A stretch of DNA of 64,000 nucleotides, taken from the NCBI GenBank assembly GCA_965226885.1, contig CBDDEL010000014.1, positions 480,001-544,000 on the forward strand, written 5' to 3'. Position numbers: made by a program. Below are positions 21,001 to 36,000 of the stretch, piece by piece; position 1 is the stretch's first letter; each line of letters opens with the position of its first letter. Source of the stretch: Opitutales bacterium (GTDB taxonomy: Bacteria; Verrucomicrobiota; Verrucomicrobiia; Opitutales; UBA2987).

Positions 21001-24000
21001 AATCTGTCGTCCGGGCGCCCGGACCAAACTCTTCGATACGTCCAACGATTTCATGCCCGAGAATCGTAGGCGTCTTCTCCGTGCGCTTTCCCGTAAACGT
21101 GTTTAAATCGCTTCGGCACAGAGTCGTGTATTCGTTTCTGACCAGAATTTCACCATCTCGAAGATCCGGCACCTCAACCTCATCCATCTTAAAGGGTTGA
21201 TTCTGGGCATGGGATATCGCTACTTTGCTTGTTTTTACGGTTGGTTCTAATTTGCTTGTTTTCATGACCGGTCTATTGATGTGATTCAGACTTGCAGGAT
21301 CCACTGGTCAACGGTGACCATCTAGATCCCATTTTCATTAAATCATTACATATATAGATATCTATATAATTTTTCAGAAGTTCAGAAGAATAGCAACCAA
21401 TAATTGTTTAGCCGTATTGATAAATCGAAAAAAGAGTTGTTTTCGGGATTCATGACGAAAAGGCACAGGCAGAACTCTGCAAGAAGGCTTCCACGGTTTC
21501 GGCGATCTGCGAACCGAGCAGGCCGTAGAGGCCGATAAGATCTTCGTAGGGACCGTTAATGGCGAAACAATCGTTGATGCCGATCCTTTTCATGGGCGAG
21601 AGCCACTTCGGCCATAGTTTAGATGCGAGTTTTACGTCCGCTAACTTTAACTCATTCACGCTTCTTATTTCTCCCCCGGTGTTCACGTAGAAACTGCTCA
21701 AATTCCCATAAAAATCATTTACTTACTTAAATTCCTTTCGCAGTCAAACTGTTGTCTAAATCCGGATATTATGTGAAATTTTCAGATACTGATTCAATAA
21801 CTGAATATGGGATTAAAACCAGTAATTGCACTCTATTGATCATACGCCATATGTGGGGACTTTTAAGCCTTATATCGGCCGAATATTTTCTCTTTGATCT
21901 CACTCAGGGAAAGCGTTCTTTCTGGCGGATCGCCTAATTCCTCGACGACTAGATCGGCTTCGGAAAAATCTTCCTTGGCGGTGTAGGCGCTGGTGGTTAC
22001 GAGGCAACGTAAGCCGGCGCCTTTGACCGCGAGGAGGCCATTGCGACTGTCCTCCACAACCAGGCATTCCTCTCCGCGCAATCCCAGGCGCTCTTTGGCC
22101 AGATTGTAAATTTCAGGATCGGGTTTTTTTCGGGAGACAACGTCCCCGGCCAGAATATGGTCAAATCTTTCATAACGGGCGCGGCCCAGCATCTTTTGGG
22201 CAATTAAATTAACAGAACGCTCATTCGAGGTTGAACAGATGGCCAGCTTGAGACCTGCCTCAATCGCTTCGTCGATCAATCGGGCAATACCGCTCCGCAA
22301 CGGAAGTTCCCCCGATTCTATGATTTGCATAAAAAGATCCGTTTTCACTTTATGGAGATCTTTGACGTAAGGATCATGGTCGGTCGCATTTTCCGGCCAG
22401 CCATTTTCCTGGAAAAAATAGCGCATGCGCTCCTTTCCACCGGATATTTTCAAGAGTTCGCCATATAGATCGACGCTCCATTCAATATTGAGGCCGAAAT
22501 GAAAAAAGGCACGGTTGAAAGCGATGCGATGGCCATCGCGCTCGGTATCGACCAATACACCATCACAATCGAAAATGAGCGCTTTCATTGGGCGAAGATT
22601 TTGACATCCGCAGCCTTGCCGACACCGCCGAATTGTCTAATTTTTGCTTTCAACAGATCTTTCATGGCATCGTATTGGCCCTTGAGGACGCGCAGCGGCT
22701 CATAATCGTTGGGATTGTCCCGGTGATAATCGCAGAATCCGTCGATGAATGCGTGCTTCAGGTTGGTCGATATGTTTACCTTTGCGCATCCAAGCTTTAT
22801 GCAACGCTGAATGGTTTCATCCGGCAGGCCGGTGCCGCCATGGAGGGCCAGCGGAGTCTGCGTACGCCGGAATATTTCTTCGATGAGGTCGAACCTTACA
22901 TCGGGTTCGCCCTTGTAATAGCCGTGAGCGGTCCCGATGGCAGGGGCAAAAACACCCAGGTCGAGTTCCCGGCAGAACCGTTCCGCTTTATCCGGGTCGG
23001 CCAGATGGGCGTCCTCCTCGGCCACGACTATATCCTCCTCCACTCCGACGATCTCCCCCAGTTCGGCCTCCACCCCGACACCGACGGCCGCCGCCCATTC
23101 AATCACCTGCCGGGAACGGGCCAGGTTTTCCTCAAAAGGAAGATTGGAGGCGTCGATCATGACCGAGGTCCATCCGGTTTTGATGCATTTTTTGATCATT
23201 TCAAGGTCCTTGCCATGATCCAGATGCAGGGCGACGGGGACAGGTGAACTTTCTGCCAGTTCACGCATCCATCCGACCAGCGTTTCGTGGCTGTAATAAA
23301 CGATCGTTTTGGCGGATGTCTGGACGATGACGGGCGCGTCGAGTTCTTCAGCGGCCTCCACCATTGCCTTCATGGAGGCATAATCGACGGGGTTGAAGGC
23401 ACCCACAGCGTAACCGCCGCGCTTCGCTTCCAACAGCATGGGTGTTAAACTTAAAAGTGGCATTTCTTTAATCTCCAGTTGGGTTGAATTATTTTTAAAA
23501 GGCGAGATTTTATGTAAAACAATTGTTTACGAATTACTATTTTGGTAGCTATAAAATAATACGGAATCGGATCTTCGTAAAGAGCGCTTTCAATTAAAAC
23601 AATCGACCCTATTTTGCGGAATGGTTTTCAACTTGCGAAATAACCGACTCCGCGTAATAGAGGAAATGGCGAAAAGGGAATCAGTGGCTACTTCGCAGGG
23701 ATTCGCGCTATCCGCCGAGAAGAGGATCTTGCTTGGCCTCTTCTCGCCATTCTTATTGTAGGAAATATTCCGGATCAGATCGACGCGGACAACACGGTCT
23801 TTATCAAGAACGTAATTCAAGCGGAAACCAGCGGGAGTTTCCCCCTTTGGTACTAGAAAGGTGTCAATAACATCCTTAAACCGATCCCTCCCTCCAAGAT
23901 AATTTGAGTGATCGCGCAGCTTTCGGCAGGAATCGATTTTTAGTGTCAGGTTCAACACATAGTCAAGGTATCTTGCATCATTTTCGATTGCTTGAATGCT

Positions 24001-33000: not shown

Positions 33001-36000
33001 GCTGATCTCAAACCCTGTAAGCTTGCCGGCGCCTGCATTGGTCCTGCGCTCGGTATTCCATTCAGGCGACTCCAGCGGGTTTGAGAAATAGCGTGCGGTC
33101 AACTCCTGGGCAAGAGGATCAGCCGGGCCCAAAGTTCGGACCTCATCGTAAACGGGGCCATCGAGTTTCTTGTGAAAAGCGGCCACGCTGAACAGGCCAA
33201 AACTCTTGAAATAGTAACTGAGGGAAGCATCAAAATTAACCGATGTCATCGGTTTCAATTCAAAGGCGGGAAGCTCCGCGTTGTCTGTGAACCGGGCGCC
33301 CGAAATATCGACGATTTCCCGCGGAACCAGATCCGTGTATTTGGGGCGCGCAATCGTCTTCGTAATAGCTGCCCGGGCTACCCAGTTGTCTCCAATTCGA
33401 CGGTTAACGTGAAAGGCATACAGCGCATTATCATAGGTGCGCTCGCTCTTAATGCTTCGGAGTACGGATTCCTCTCCAAAATTATTGAATAAACTACTCC
33501 AGAATCTCGGTTGGATAAACTGGAATGAAGCCGGCAAAATCGCTTGAACATCCTCGGGGAGTTCATCCCGATGCGTATTGACTCTATTCGTGGTGAATGT
33601 GTTTTTCGTTTGTTCCCAGCGAAAGCCGACGATAAATTCCCAGTCTTTCCAGTTCAGCGTCTGCATCAGATAGGCGGCCGTAATATTTTCTTCGGCTTCA
33701 AAATTTTTCAGGATGGCATCGGTTATAGCCAGGGTCAGGTCATCGTCGGTTTGAACAAACTTAATATCACCGGAGTCGCCAATAAAGGCCTGTGTTGCCG
33801 CCGCATCGAACTTGGGGCCGAACGGGTAATCCTCAACATCGCCATAATCAGGAAGAAATCCGGAAAGCTCCCCCCCGAAAAAAGGCTCATCGGCAAGCGT
33901 GAGAACGCCCTGGCCACCTGTATCCACCCGGCTGAATTGATTGAAGTCTCTAACGAATGCCTTGTCGCGAATATCGACCGCCCAACCCGCTTTCGTTTTC
34001 CATTGCAGTCCGAACCAGTTACTTTCCAGTTTGACATTGATTTCCGCCCCCGACCGTTTATCGTTGCTCATGAAGAAGTTGTTCTCAATTGAGCCCAGAT
34101 TCGAATTGAAGCCCTCATTATCCGAAATGCGGAATACTTCAGTGTTGCTCAGTTTATCACCTTTATCTCTTATGACCGGCCGCCCGTCCACAACCATAAT
34201 TCTTAAATCAAAATCTTCTGCTTCAAGTTGAAGCTGGCGCTCATTCCAGTTCTTATCAGCCTCCGATCGATAAACCATATAATCGATCGATAGAGCGTCC
34301 GAAAGCTGATGCTCGCCTCCAGCCTGGTAGGTCAGGATACTGTCTTCGGTCACCGTCGTTTGCAGGGTCTTCTGGGCATCGCTCTCCTGGTCAATTGAAG
34401 TGTAAGTCTGGGATTCTTCATCGTAGGCAATCGTCCCCAGTTGAATGGCTTCATCAAGGGACAGTCGGCGCTCTTCAAGACTGCCCCCCTCTACCCGGGC
34501 CTTGATTTCAGGATCGTTCAAGTCATAGCCCAGGGCCAGCGCGCGCTCCTCCGTCAGAGTGGCCGCTCCGGTGTAGGCTTCCCCTGAGTTGGTCGGGTTG
34601 AGGTGGGTTTCCTGTAATACCTCGTCATCATCAAACTGATTATACGAAACCGAGGCAAACCAGCGGTGGTTTTCATTGAGTTCAAATTCAAATTTGGAAC
34701 TGATTCCTCTCCGCTCTCGTTTGATAAGGAAGTCTTCAAGTTGCGTCCCCTCGAGCACAAATCCCCGTTTCGGCGATTTCAATTCCGGGTTGGCATCAGG
34801 ATTCCAGCCATCCGTCCTGAGGGTGTCCGAACCTCGATTATCTTCGCTCCAGTTATACGAAAGCGAAAGACCGATTCTCTTCTTCTCCCCCCATGAATTG
34901 CTATAGGTGGCGCTCAACCGACGGCTGCTCTCTTCAGAAGTCTCATATTGTCCCCCCGCGTATTCAAACCCGATATGTGATCCCTCCCGGTCTAGGGCGC
35001 TCCGGGTGACCAGATTGACCGAGCCGCCTATAAAGTGCGCCCAATCATCGGGCAGCCAGGTTTTCTGAACTTCGATCCGTTCCAACTGATCGATTGATAT
35101 GATATTCAATCCGGTGGATCGTCCATCTTCCTCCGGTGTCGCCGAGACCACCCCGTCCACAGAAATCGTATTGAGGGACGGATCGGCTCCGCGAATAATG
35201 ACAAATTTGCCCTCTCCCTGGTCCTGCTGCACCGAAAGGCCAACAACTCGTTGAAGGGCTTCTGCCGGATTGCGGTCGACGAATTGACCGAATGCATCCG
35301 AAGCAATAATCTCTGTTAAATTAGATGCGGCCTTCTTTTGATTGAAGGCCTTCGCTTGCCCAGTCCTTGTTCCTGTTACCTCAAACCCTTCCAATTCAAT
35401 TATTTGTTCCTTCGGCATGGTCACGAAAACCGATAATCTCTCTTCTTCAGCGCTGACCTCGACCGATTCGGTGTAGTTCGAATAACCTATGTATTTCACT
35501 ACCAATTGGTATCTCCCCGGATCTATGCCTCTAAAAACAAAGCTGCCCCCCCGCTGGGTTTGTACGGTTCTCCCAAGCTCCACCAACCTTACTTCTGCTC
35601 CTTGCAGATAGTTGTTCCCGTCTGGATCCATCACCCGTCCGCGTATCTCTGCGGCTTCAGAAATGCTCCAGATCCCCAATATTCCCGCGATGAATACATT
35701 TAAATATTTATGATACATATCTAGATATCACAATATCACATATAGATAATAAATAACTATAAATTATTATATATATATACATTGGATTCGATTGATTCGA
35801 TTGATTCGATTCGCATGATTCGCATCACGCTATGTCAACATTGATTCGCATCACGCTATGTCAACATTAAAGATTCGCATCACGCTATGTCAACATTAAA
35901 TGATTTTTTTGCTTTTGCTTTTCTGATTATATACATGCACATGCTCAGCTGCTCAGCTGCTCAGCTGCTCAGCTCAGCATAAGTATTTCTTATGCAACTC

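Follow-up and report, generated by a model that had tools for sequence, protein, structure and literature searches.

Organization of the Locus

The window analysed here is a stretch of 64,000 nucleotides from a marine Opitutales bacterium (Verrucomicrobiota), and positions refer to it unless a contig is named. A gene for a TonB-dependent receptor (TBDR) is followed, 29 bp after its stop codon, by the gene for a protein with lamin tail domains (LTD protein) and then by a metallophosphoesterase gene, all on the minus strand. Downstream come a PHP hydrolase, two unknown proteins, an aldolase, a HAD phosphatase, and finally a phosphonate/organophosphate cluster with PhoD. The features, all on the minus strand, are the following.

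36284..38555, minus: IS21 element (istA and istB), upstream boundary of the island (Mu-transpos_C_2; IstB_IS21, 248.7 bits)
35817..35895, minus: 24-base motif containing TTGACA, three tandem copies, just upstream of the receptor
32512..35718, minus: TBDR, 1,068 aa (TIGR01782, PF13620, PF07715)
29717..32482, minus: LTD protein, 921 aa, exported, without catalytic domain (PF00932; AF2 model)
31790..32395, minus: its jelly-roll of CBM/MAM/reelin-subrepeat type, residues 30-231 (2e26, Z 13.1; CBM61 2xom, Z 12.5; MAM 8yt7, Z 12.2)
30968..31468, minus: its first lamin tail domain, residues 339-505 (PF00932, best stretch 340-451)
30074..30637, minus: its second lamin tail domain, residues 616-803 (lamin B1 Ig-like domain 7dtg, Z 10.7; second PF00932 stretch)
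29720..30073, minus: its W-rich C-terminal module (W-CTD), residues 804-921, about ten beta strands, also ending about 38 other ORFs of the genome
26570..29620, minus: secreted metallophosphoesterase of calcineurin-like type, 1,016 aa, its C-terminus W-rich and divergent (Metallophos 49-284, 30.2 bits)
25202..26542, minus: exported PHP-type (CehA/McbA-like) metallohydrolase, 446 aa (NF038032, 59.5 bits, below the cut-off of 80)
24155..25201, minus: exported 348-aa protein of unknown family (no family among Pfam and NCBIfam profiles)
23590..24153, minus: basic 187-aa protein of unknown function, pI 9.5, without signal peptide (no family match)
22585..23463, minus: class II ketose-bisphosphate aldolase (PF01116, 300.6 bits; TIGR00167, 270 bits, above cut-off)
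21863..22588, minus: HAD-IA phosphatase (beta-phosphoglucomutase family hydrolase), overlapping the aldolase gene by 4 bp
14365..21304, minus: second block of the island, with an HpnZ-like alcohol dehydrogenase, a GlpT/PgtP-type MFS organophosphate transporter, a PhnX-like hydrolase, a 2-hydroxyacid dehydrogenase, a PhoD-like phosphatase, and an MFS transporter
15416..16654, minus: PhoD-like gene of this block (PhoD match at contig positions C14:495596-496345)

The initial annotation had placed a metallophosphoesterase next to the receptor-LTD pair, and the gene was recovered with the length and domain given there; the motifs GD..D, GNHD, and GH can be seen by eye in its sequence, and its C-terminus aligns with the W-rich module at 22% identity. 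The sugar-phosphate genes (class II aldolase, HAD hydrolase) and PhoD were also found as described, as were the nine PhoD matches in the genome. The three proteins listed there as unknown indeed have no Pfam family, but one of them carries the CehA/McbA-type PHP motif, together with an HTH motif and a hydrophobic N-terminal segment. Atlas feature scores of the 348-aa protein reach 0.93-0.95 against unnamed clusters, of which one is labelled “Phytase-like,” and a propeller of phytase-like/SdiA-regulated type is no more than a lead. Profile scores in the second block (TIGR03366, 298.8 bits; TIGR00881, 234.8 bits; TIGR03351, 168.7 bits) all lie below the equivalog cut-offs. The sole other genomic copy of the 24-base repeat, possibly a promoter or operator, lies upstream of a duplicate of the locus on contig C17. 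In two metatranscriptome libraries of one study there are contigs that match the LTD gene without any difference from 29777 to 32503, a hint of expression that DNA carry-over could also produce.

The Receptor and the LTD Protein

The receptor starts with a signal peptide, followed by a CarboxypepD_reg domain (25-93, within an extension at 25-105), a Plug domain (135-219), and the barrel. Its subfamily is TonB-Xanth-Caul, as TIGR01782 reaches 428.1 bits against a cut-off of 310, with PF13620 at 50.4 bits and PF07715 at 44.3 bits. It is not of Oar type, and the earlier description as “Oar-like” has to be abandoned: it fits only the receptor of a fifth pair in the genome (C15:710-716 kb; OMP_b-brl_4).

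The LTD protein is a chain of beta-sandwiches in the order CBM/MAM-like jelly-roll, Calx-beta, LTD, Ig, and LTD, closed by the W-rich C-terminal module. PF00932 matches it with 83.5 bits in two stretches, and the 7dtg match covers model range 616..758 (106 aligned residues, rmsd 2.5, 19% identity). The AF2 model (pLDDT 86.5, pTM 0.69) agrees with the earlier view of an all-beta protein without enzyme fold, since none is contained in the top structural matches, which are S-layer proteins, adhesins, and ectodomains. The jelly-roll is the best-conserved part between paralog groups (50-53% identity), and its structural matches include the carbohydrate-binding modules CBM61, CBM16, and CBM4.

The N-terminal helix had been read as a signal anchor. 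A cleavable signal peptide is more likely, as all 12 orthologs read have an AXA-type cleavage site, judged by eye, ahead of the conserved beginning of the mature protein. No lipobox was found in the LTD protein, which is not a lipoprotein. The mature protein has a net charge of -97 and a pI of 4.05, and each of its domains is acidic; this argues against direct binding of DNA or other polyanions, unless divalent cations bridge the two.

The W-rich C-Terminal Module

The W-CTD, 115 aa in length, stands at the extreme C-terminus of all 39 ORFs that carry it in this genome. It matched no sequence in Pfam, NCBIfam, or the PDB, and although its own AF2 model is well defined (pLDDT 90.4), the best structural Z was 3.8 and Foldseek returned nothing at E<=0.001. 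Its passengers are diverse: Pfam domains of nine kinds were found in 16 of the 27 scanned in this genome, where nucleases, phosphodiesterases, LRR, and FG-GAP proteins share the module. Passengers were found in 39 of 69 representatives from other genomes, among them proteases, nucleases, LRR and FG-GAP proteins, and chondroitinase; cadherin proteins have the module as well. A Plug match is no more than 4 kb away from nine of the 39 ORFs, where random placement would give 1.5 +/- 1.2; the other 30 are far from any receptor, and the module is not specific to receptor neighbours. These features point to a general exoprotein tag, which would be the sole obvious candidate for anchoring the LTD protein.

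In this respect the W-CTD resembles the C-terminal domain of the type IX secretion system (T9SS; Por_Secre_tail). Both are beta-rich, about 100 aa long, placed at the extreme C-terminus of many unrelated exoproteins per genome, and better conserved than their passengers, and in Bacteroidetes LTD proteins (weaker matches) the T9SS tail PF18962 occupies the W-CTD position. However, the W-CTD has no sequence or structural match to that tail, and its function is predicted.

Pairing, Copies, and Distribution

The LTD gene is immediately preceded by a related receptor gene in all four own-genome copies (on C14, C17, C10, and C15:184-190 kb) and in 11 of 13 relatives, that is, in 15 of the 17 cases examined. 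With only 21 Plug matches in the whole genome, a receptor beside all four family members is far beyond chance. The initial annotation had counted five pairs; four are one family with the receptor first, whereas in the fifth a different, 616-aa LTD protein precedes a different receptor. The near-identical copy on C17 was verified, with amino-acid identities of 93.6% (TBDR), 98.7% (LTD protein), and 88% (esterase). Receptor and LTD trees have every supported clade in common, including three paralog groups within one genome, and pairwise identities of the two proteins correlate with r=0.96 (66 pairs, not independent of each other). Inheritance and duplication have therefore affected the two genes as one unit.

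The 34 relatives of the LTD protein reported earlier were retrieved at 32-94% identity, and the fusion of LTD to Exo_endo_phos was confirmed (858 aa, two copies). The statement that the pair occurs in over two thousand genomes does not describe this family, which is present in 9 of 151 genomes sampled from the order, whereas LTD as such is found in 50. Foreign pairs span four families of the order. Genome G118 has two giant family members of 2,214 and 3,767 aa, with repeated units and no adjoining receptor.

Phosphorus Genes around the Pair

The genes around the pair vary freely between loci, while the pair itself is constant, and in most lineages it stands first in a cluster that encodes exported phosphoesterases and organophosphate carriers of the inner membrane. 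At eight of 11 foreign pairs the neighbours are exported phosphoesterases or glycerol-phosphate genes: GDPD, GlpD, MIP (GlpF), GlpT-like MFS, PhoA, PhoD-EEP, EEP, GDSL, Metallophos, a phosphonate-binding ABC protein, or aldolase with HAD and DhaKL. Signal peptides are present on the hydrolases at these pairs, in one case of the Tat type. In the own genome, two of the four family pairs adjoin phosphoesterases, and the phosphorus-type genes of the present island are Metallophos, PHP, HAD, GlpT-like MFS, PhnX-like hydrolase, and PhoD. Paralog group C (own C15:184-190 kb, G137 C46 twice, and G097 C25) lies between a LolA-like gene and GT8/Fur/Suf genes, with no phosphorus genes nearby. Neither a Pho box nor a PhoBR link was found, nor was a PstS-type PF12849 match in this genome, which is 96% complete; it is from gene content only that phosphate regulation of the locus may be inferred.

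Comparison with Known Systems

A close layout is that of the phosphate utilisation (Pus) loci of Flavobacterium and other Bacteroidetes, described as low-phosphate-induced TBDTs with a downstream surface protein, PusCD standing beside phosphodiesterases and phosphomonoesterases (Lidbury et al. 2021, PMC8115612). In both cases the gene downstream of an outer-membrane TonB-dependent transporter encodes an exported protein without enzymatic function, and the two are clustered with genes for phosphodiesterases and phosphomonoesterases, with phosphonate genes, and with organophosphate carriers of the inner membrane. The Opitutales partner, however, is neither SusD-like nor a lipoprotein, its receptor is not of SusC type, and the phylum is another; low-phosphate induction is demonstrated for Pus, whereas the Opitutales locus is known from its genes.

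With SusC/SusD the pair shares the order of receptor and partner, the carboxypeptidase-regulatory-like N-terminal extension, and the proposed role of the partner as substrate catcher. SusD, in contrast, is a helical TPR-like lipoprotein, whereas the LTD partner is all-beta with an ordinary signal peptide; the hydrolases of the locus are phosphoesterases instead of glycosidases, and the SusD Pfam families and TIGR04056 gave no match at the locus. A precedent for a structurally unrelated, beta-rich partner is offered by BtuB-BtuG and XusA-XusB of Bacteroides, where adjacent non-SusD surface proteins are reported to cap TonB-dependent transporters as ligand-capturing lids (PMC10404256, PMC13142918). 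The partners in those solved complexes are beta-propeller lipoproteins that serve B12 or siderophore uptake, whereas the Opitutales pairing is known from genes and its anchoring differs.

For cell-surface calcineurin-like phosphoesterases with LTD and Ig-type beta-sandwiches, teichoic acid, eDNA, or lipid head groups have been proposed as substrates; one of these enzymes, ShfP/YvnB, is described as a secreted protein that combines LTD and Ig domains with a calcineurin-like esterase and liberates glycerol, its proposed substrate being lipoteichoic acid (PMC11488536). By that description it resembles the present combination of secreted metallophosphoesterase and LTD/Ig domains, and glycerol release fits the glycerol-phosphate genes of sister loci. 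In ShfP, however, LTD and esterase form one polypeptide, whereas here each has its own gene next to the other, with a receptor as the fixed companion of the LTD gene. The ExeM/NucH/Xds nucleases, which have an N-terminal LTD, share the fold, but the LTD protein of the locus lacks a nuclease domain, and the LTD of ExeM is reported as dispensable for extracellular DNA degradation (PMC6085458). The 858-aa LTD+EEP protein of the fifth locus is a true relative of these nucleases (NF033680, 121 bits, far below cut-off).

Interpretation and Alternatives

The best explanation, to which roughly even confidence is given, is a phosphorus-scavenging utilisation locus with the LTD protein as exported capture partner of the receptor, Pus-like in layout and built from different parts. 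Judged by gene content, the receptor-LTD islands look like a verrucomicrobial counterpart of the Bacteroidetes phosphate utilisation loci. The LTD protein would be exported by Sec and brought to or kept at the cell surface by its W-CTD, where it would presumably dock on the receptor and capture a phosphoester-bearing substrate through its jelly-roll and LTD domains. The substrate would be trimmed by the ShfP/YvnB-like metallophosphoesterase and the PHP hydrolase (in sister loci by EEP, PhoD, GDSL, and GlpQ-type GDPD enzymes), and the small products would be imported by the receptor with TonB energy and carried inward by the GlpT/PgtP-like carrier. The carbon skeleton would enter triose metabolism via the HAD phosphatase and aldolase, with GlpD or DhaK taking part in sister loci. 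Among the possible substrates, phosphodiesters of glycerol-phosphate type such as phospholipid head groups and teichoic-acid-like polymers are the most likely and nucleic acids come second, because GDPD, GlpD, GlpF, GDSL, and PhoD as recurrent neighbours fit such diesters better than DNA.

The earlier proposal of a SusD-type partner thus survives in part: the protein belongs to one inherited unit, is exported and non-enzymatic, and has a CBM/MAM-like tip, but it is not a lipoprotein and lacks the SusD fold. Uptake of phosphodiester polymers had also been proposed, and the link to phosphoester scavenging is much stronger across genomes (8 of 11 foreign pairs) than in the own genome (2 of 5 pairs). 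DNA or RNA as the ligand is weakened by the recurrent neighbours, by the negative charge, and by the dispensable LTD of ExeM (PMC6085458).

The LTD protein may instead stand free as an adhesin or scaffold of the cell surface or matrix, holding polymers or particles, and perhaps W-CTD hydrolases, near the cell without docking, while the receptor alone imports small organophosphates and the linkage reflects shared regulation only. TonB-Xanth-Caul receptors are not known to need a partner. The adhesin-like chain of beta-sandwiches with its structural matches, the giant receptor-less relatives in G118, and the W-CTD in common with LRR, FG-GAP, and cadherin proteins all suit a scaffold, as does the proposal that LTD steers proteins to membrane-associated structures (Mans 2004, quoted in PMC6085458). 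It is nevertheless rather unlikely, as the pair has been co-duplicated and kept adjacent, with trees that agree, in three paralog groups and in lineages far apart, more tightly than is usual for genes that are co-regulated but whose products are physically independent, while the other genes changed freely around it.

It is improbable that the pair takes up non-phosphorus cargo (a glycan, peptide, or metal complex) and adjoins phosphorus genes as a fellow member of nutrient-stress islands. The very acidic Calx-beta/LTD protein could have cations, or polymers of positive or no charge, as its ligands, its tip matches carbohydrate-binding modules, paralog group C has other neighbours, and protein or glycan uptake was already a caveat of the initial annotation. 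Against this stand the phosphoesterases beside 8 of 11 foreign and 2 of 4 own pairs in four families, and the separate nature of the Fur/Suf unit, downstream of the GT8 gene. Pfam, moreover, gave no glycoside hydrolase or polysaccharide lyase among the neighbour proteins submitted, the nearest exceptions being a sulfatase by one of the receptor-less G118 giants and GDSL esterases.

Very little credence is given to an outward-working, Oar-like receptor that serves as the outer-membrane exit for the LTD protein, whose sole export signal is Sec. In Myxococcus, the protease PopC is reported to depend on Oar for its secretion (PMC6434023), each LTD paralog has kept its own receptor paralog, and a non-lipoprotein of 95 kDa has no other evident dedicated path across the outer membrane. 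However, a general export route must exist, since some 30 other exoproteins with a W-CTD lack a nearby receptor; the receptor is of TonB-Xanth-Caul rather than Oar type, and the hydrolases and inner-membrane importer of the locus fit import.

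The Phosphorus Island

The genome of this Opitutales bacterium (G000) comprises 5.48 Mb in 17 contigs and is 96% complete, and the named homologues of the window proteins come from Opitutales or Verrucomicrobia. On contig C14, closely packed ORFs on the minus strand form a phosphorus island, which is opened by a TonB-dependent receptor (TBDR) and a protein with lamin tail domains (LTD). The first block of the island ends with an aldolase and an HAD hydrolase gene, and 558 bp separate this end from a second block of six genes.

Genes of the island (window positions, minus strand)
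35718..32512, -, TBDR, 1,068 aa; a 29-bp gap follows
32482..29717, -, LTD protein (P0001), 921 aa; a 96-bp gap follows
29620..26570, -, Metallophos protein (esterase P0003), 1,016 aa; a 27-bp gap follows
3' of the Metallophos gene, -, a 446-aa protein, then abutting 348-aa and 187-aa proteins
End of first block, -, class II aldolase and HAD hydrolase genes, overlapping by 4 bp
Second block, -, HpnZ-like alcohol dehydrogenase, GlpT/PgtP-like MFS carrier, PhnX-like hydrolase, 2-hydroxyacid dehydrogenase, PhoD-like phosphatase and MFS genes

The gene names are backed by Pfam and NCBIfam, several of those in the second block with scores under the curated cut-offs. The stretch at 16781-21304 (HpnZ-like, GlpT/PgtP-like, PhnX-like and 2-hydroxyacid dehydrogenase genes), whose four named genes all score below the equivalog cut-offs, looks like a route for breaking down a hydroxyalkyl-phosphonate or a phosphorylated C3 acid. 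The esterase exceeds the Metallophos threshold (30.2 versus 21.5 bits); motifs II-V can be made out by eye, and D-T-Q stands at motif I. An Atlas search with the 348-aa protein returned unnamed clusters only, plus a weak "phytase-like" lead, and PDB sequence searches found no match to the receptor, to the esterase or to the PHP protein. Promoter and terminator sites are no more frequent than in shuffled sequences, and the scan is therefore uninformative on the limits of operons. A third copy of the esterase gene, 80-88% identical and in three pieces, lies at G000:C16:436329-440152 and is a probable pseudogene or frameshifted gene.

The Receptor and Its Copies

The receptor belongs to the TonB-Xanth-Caul subfamily: it scores 428.1 bits with TIGR01782, whose cut-off is 310, over model positions 2-867 of 868. 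Its plug (44.3 bits) and barrel occupy residues 110-1068 (959 aa), preceded by a carboxypeptidase-regulatory-like extension at the N-terminus. The description of the receptor as Oar-like in the initial annotation does not hold, since PF25183 (OMP_b-brl_4) finds no match in it; this family is present only in the receptor of a fifth locus (183.9 bits), with which the focal receptor has the CarboxypepD_reg domain in common. Plug matches number 21 in the whole genome.

The genome was searched with the locus proteins, and four regions were annotated. The near-copy on C17 extends to the whole operon, as had been noticed, with amino acid identities of 93.6% for the receptor, 98.7% for the LTD protein, 88% for the esterase and 96-99% for the others. 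A pair on C10 (47% and 50% identity) has transposases on either side, and another at C15:184-190 kb (46% and 46%) is bordered by a LolA-like gene on one side and by GT8, Fur and Suf genes on the other. With the pair on C14 these make four of the five pairs counted previously; the fifth locus, at C15:710-722 kb, is of another kind: here two LTD proteins, one of 1,223 aa with cadherin and CHRD domains and one of 616 aa, are encoded upstream of an Oar-type receptor. The LTD-nuclease fusion reported before is found at this locus as a divergently read ExeM-like LTD-EEP nuclease of 858 aa. A gene for a non-specific DNA/RNA endonuclease (Endonuclease_NS, 158.9 bits; L002:2559-3317, that is G000:C15:176.6-177.3 kb), 6.6 kb downstream of the other C15 pair and past the Suf genes, is probably unrelated to the receptor-LTD pair.

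Coinheritance of Receptor and LTD Protein

Of the 151 genomes sampled from the order, 50 contain an LTD domain of any kind, whereas the full-length family is narrow and is present in nine of the 151 and in six of 89 genera. LTD relatives also occur in Pelagicoccus and other Opitutales. A wide alignment was too divergent for a locus search and one of 12 sequences yielded only 8 loci; family members were then taken from the sampled genomes, at most 20 kb was fetched around each foreign member, and the ORFs were compared with the window proteins. A related receptor lies directly upstream on the same strand for 11 of the 13 foreign members, two of these pairs having genes in pieces and one a receptor truncated where the contig ends. 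The other two members are giants of genome G118, which consist of repeated units of the same architecture and have neither an adjacent receptor nor the C-terminal module described below.

Giant ORFs of G118
L046:8377-15021, 2,214 aa, repeated jelly-roll/Calx/LTD/Ig/LTD units
L047:8528-19831, 3,767 aa, repeated jelly-roll/Calx/LTD/Ig/LTD units

One of the giants has a sulfatase gene and a gene of the enolase superfamily beside it.

Trees of 12 receptors and of their 12 partners, the latter a quick version rather than a careful search, have every supported clade in common: (G045, G049); G074; (C14, C17); (C10, (G137_C18, Guaymas)); and ((C15a, G137_C46b), (G137_C46a, G097_C25)). Pairwise identities of receptors and LTD proteins correlate with r=0.96 over 66 non-independent pairs. 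Three paralog groups coexist in G000 and each has retained its own receptor, which indicates that the pair was duplicated as a unit. The receptor-LTD pair can be regarded with high confidence as a functional unit.

Structure and Export of the LTD Protein

P0001 matches PF00932 in two stretches (83.5 bits; gathering threshold 34.3). An AlphaFold2 model from 26 sequences (pLDDT 86.5, pTM 0.69) is all-beta beyond an N-terminal helix and can be divided as follows.

Domains of the LTD protein
Residues 29-230, jelly-roll like reelin subrepeats, MAM domains and carbohydrate-binding modules (Z 11-13)
Residues 233-337, Calx-beta-like domain (Z 10.2)
Residues about 340-500, first LTD, by structural alignment
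Residues 511-614, Ig-like domain (Z 10.8)
Residues 616-758, second LTD, like the lamin B1 Ig-like domain (Z 10.7, rmsd 2.5 over 106 residues)

Conservation across paralog groups is highest in the jelly-roll and in the two LTDs. No enzyme fold appears among the structural matches of the model, whose whole-protein Foldseek hits are generic beta-sandwich chains only; the same outcome had been obtained with an earlier model. P0001 has no EEP or NF033681 match and is hence not a nuclease of the ExeM/NucH type, and the SusD/RagB fold (PF07980, PF14322 and relatives) is absent, as Pfam finds only LTD and the model is all-beta. By eye, an AXA-type site stands just before the conserved start "V..F.ESFETDG" in all 12 orthologs, and the protein contains no cysteine and hence no lipobox, which together point to a Sec-exported non-lipoprotein. 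The mature chain is strongly acidic, with 131 acidic and 34 basic residues and a pI near 4 in every domain. The LTD protein is an exported, non-catalytic, predicted binder.

Gene Neighbourhoods in Other Genomes

Pfam was run on 84 neighbour proteins, alongside the comparison of ORFs with the window proteins. A phosphorus-gene theme recurs at eight of the 11 foreign pairs, and at these, as in the present island, a receptor and an exported binder are found with phosphoesterases and organophosphate carriers. In genome G137 (C18) the pair is preceded by two GDPD genes, a GlpF-type MIP, GlpD and a TrmB-type regulator, and in G097 (C27) by MIP, one GDPD and GlpD; in both, and in a third MAG grouped with them whose contig stops inside the receptor, genes for a GDSL esterase and for an EEP protein of 752 aa with the W-rich tail follow. 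A Guaymas MAG has GlpT-like MFS, HAD, GDPD, TrmB, GDPD and GlpD genes. In G049, a phosphonate-binding ABC protein, HAD, a Tat-signal Metallophos protein and GDPD come before the pair and EEP after it. In G045, aldolase and HAD genes (64% and 57% identity to those of the window) with DhaL/DhaK come before it and a PhoD-EEP fusion, EEP and GDSL after it. The pair of G074 is followed by PhoA and by an ortholog of P0003 (30% identity over 1,008 residues) with an additional Laminin_G_3, and that of G057 has divergent PhoD-like, PhnX-like and MFS genes and an esterase fragment. N-terminal signal sequences are present on the neighbouring GDPD, EEP, GDSL, PhoD-EEP and Metallophos proteins.

The three remaining foreign pairs form one paralog group with the C15:184-190 kb pair and have no phosphorus genes nearby. 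Pfam detects no glycoside hydrolase or polysaccharide lyase family among the submitted neighbour proteins; closest to such enzymes are the sulfatase beside the receptor-less giant and the GDSL esterases.

Possible Role and Substrate

Marine production is limited by the turnover of organic phosphorus, and Verrucomicrobiota are major degraders of polymers. To our knowledge, their outer-membrane uptake machinery is almost unstudied, and what bacterial lamin tail domains bind has been an open question since these were described in 2004.

The neighbourhoods allow us to assign the pair, with moderate to good confidence, to the scavenging of organophosphorus compounds in most lineages; the paralog group without phosphorus context is the counterpoint. 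The system looks like a verrucomicrobial version of Pus/PUL-like receptor loci. From Flavobacterium, low-phosphate-induced PusCD pairs are described as well as TBDTs whose gene is followed by one for a hypothetical surface lipoprotein (Lidbury et al., PMC8115612); both types share their clusters with phosphodiesterase, phosphomonoesterase, phosphonate and inner-membrane carrier genes, and lipid head groups and nucleic acids are proposed as substrates. In the present case the partner is unusual and ends in an uncharacterised, widespread module. Within the literature searched (the cited papers without their supplements), no description of an LTD-receptor pair was found, and "lamin tail domain" and "TonB-dependent" occurred together in one unrelated paper; the accessible portion of a study on phosphate and fucoidan in a verrucomicrobium (PMC12872454) contains nothing on the system.

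The initial annotation was largely right in what it observed, with corrections, and is supported in part in what it made of it. The SusD-like role proposed for the LTD protein agrees with its position directly after the receptor and with their coinheritance; against it are the missing SusD fold and lipobox. Receptor lids other than SusD are reported for BtuBG and XusAB (PMC10404256, PMC13142918), and in Oar/PopC the receptor is reported to serve export (PMC6434023). It is conceivable, if somewhat doubtful, that the LTD protein docks on the receptor as a lid within the overall reading of the pair as a scavenging unit. Alternatively, the LTD protein may act merely as a scaffold, which keeps substrate and enzymes near the cell without such docking. 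If the reading as a scavenging unit holds, the Bacteroidetes logic of receptor, surface binder and exo-enzyme has been reinvented with unrelated parts, and a system is at hand to ask what bacterial lamin tail domains bind.

As for the ligand, extracellular DNA or RNA, put forward previously alongside other phosphodiester polymers, loses ground, and a glycerol-phosphate-type diester or polymer is more likely than DNA because of the GDPD, GlpD, GlpF, GDSL and PhoD neighbours, the precedent of ShfP and the extreme acidity of the LTD protein. ShfP/YvnB, a secreted LTD, Ig and calcineurin-like esterase, is reported to generate extracellular glycerol, lipoteichoic acid being its proposed substrate; the binding of eDNA or analogous polymers by its LTD is a prediction only (Updegrove et al., PMC11488536). 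P0003 may be a cell-surface phosphoesterase of this ShfP/YvnB-like kind. ExeM degraded extracellular DNA in vivo without its LTD, whose role is called unresolved (PMC6085458). The fifth locus, with its ExeM-like nuclease, is a better candidate for DNA than the focal pair.

A Tryptophan-Rich C-Terminal Module

The LTD protein ends in a W-rich module (W-CTD) with the consensus GFPGW.AS.WY.NYNVDFWPWIYHDEHGWQFV...

29720-30073, -, W-CTD of about 115 aa

Residues 804-921 match the extreme C-termini of 39 ORFs in G000 (for example at L064:1930-2283 and L070:4-357) with 33-80% identity; a few of these ORFs are broken. These carriers include two Endonuclease I, several EEP and an NPP-type phosphodiesterase with LRRs, as well as LRR, FG-GAP, NHL, CAP and BNR proteins; a Pfam passenger was found in 16 of the 27 scanned, and some are little beyond a signal peptide and the module. 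Among 1.84 billion representatives, 1,457 proteins reach E<=0.001 with the profile and 247 reach E<=1e-10, nearly all of them matched at their C-terminus. Pfam passengers, seen in 39 of 69 scanned representatives, comprise LRR, FG-GAP, subtilases, trypsin, M23 and astacin peptidases, cyclophilin, Endonuclease I, EEP, chondroitinase B, CotH and LTD. The module has no match in Pfam or NCBIfam even at E<=10, and its profile gives four chance-level rows among PDB sequences (best E 0.79). Folded alone from 31 sequences it reaches a pLDDT of 90.4; its best structural neighbour has Z 3.8, and Foldseek returns nothing at E<=0.001.

Since the W-CTD is always terminal, better conserved than its passengers and attached to unrelated exoproteins, it looks like a sorting or anchoring tag and is a candidate for a new domain of sorting/anchoring, surface display or secretion. 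It resembles the T9SS sorting domain in position and diversity of passengers only. Bacteroidetes LTD proteins, found as weak matches, have a T9SS tail in the corresponding position; W/Y-rich repeats of other kinds close the neighbouring esterase and the distant orthologs of the LTD protein, and the G045 ortholog has none. Seven receptors have W-CTD carriers within 4 kb of their Plug match, together nine of the 39; random placement gave 1.5 +/- 1.2 carriers (maximum 7) in 2,000 trials. Receptor loci of G000 therefore tend to encode W-CTD proteins; the other 30 carriers have no receptor nearby. A bolder reading, which we consider improbable, is that the W-CTD is the Verrucomicrobiota counterpart of the T9SS tail, fixing dozens of exoproteins to the outer membrane, and makes the LTD protein a non-lipoprotein lid or fishing line of its own TBDR that captures phosphodiester polymers for import, whether these are teichoic-acid-like, phospholipid-derived or nucleic. 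Were this true, bacterial lamin tail domains would have their first defined job.

Two more receptors, of 866 aa, stand beside W-CTD proteins at G000:C10:91281-95590 and G000:C15:381459-388006, with FG-GAP/ASPIC passengers at one and NHL and FG-GAP at the other; the layout of receptor and W-CTD exoprotein thus extends beyond LTD proteins. Three ORFs have a single in-frame TGA within the module, namely L054 (C14:186089-187933), L056 (C17:832030-832980) and L062 (C10:52004-52528), and may represent pseudogenes, sequencing errors or read-through.

Mobile Elements, Regulation, and Expression

Insertion sequences abound in the window and flank the island, and an IS21 element lies directly upstream of the receptor.

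Insertion sequences and upstream repeats
2928-5651, 11352-12722, 36284-38555 and 42146-46160, insertion sequences: two DDE_Tnp_1_4, one DDE_Tnp_1, one DDE_3 and two IS21, the IS21 copies in opposite orientation
35817-35895, 24-base motif containing TTGACA, in three tandem copies upstream of the receptor; short AATCG and GAGCAGCT repeats come next

The C17 duplicate of the island is in two separate places (747-755 kb and 844-858 kb); this split and the bounding elements suggest IS-mediated duplication and rearrangement. Elsewhere in the genome, the 24-base motif occurs only at C17:842995, where a transposase gene now separates it from the receptor copy. Being restricted to the C14 locus and its C17 copy, the triplet is uninformative on any regulon, and we know of no regulator site for phosphate depletion (Pho regulon) in this phylum. 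Nine PhoD matches were counted in G000, the number given previously. PstS-type PF12849, whose gene could have provided a reference promoter for the Pho regulon, has no match in this 96% complete genome and matches in 13 of 14 control genomes; high-affinity phosphate uptake may depend on another binding protein, or a PF12849 gene may be unassembled.

In the RNA libraries X16 and X18, no contig of at least 95% identity covers the receptor, PHP or 348-aa genes, absence being beyond what contigs can show, and library X22 holds only pieces of 90-95% identity, from a relative. In two metatranscriptome libraries of one study, short contigs match the LTD gene exactly between 29777 and 32503, and others are exact matches to parts of the dehydrogenase and aldolase genes. 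These identical contigs are compatible with transcription in situ or with DNA carry-over.
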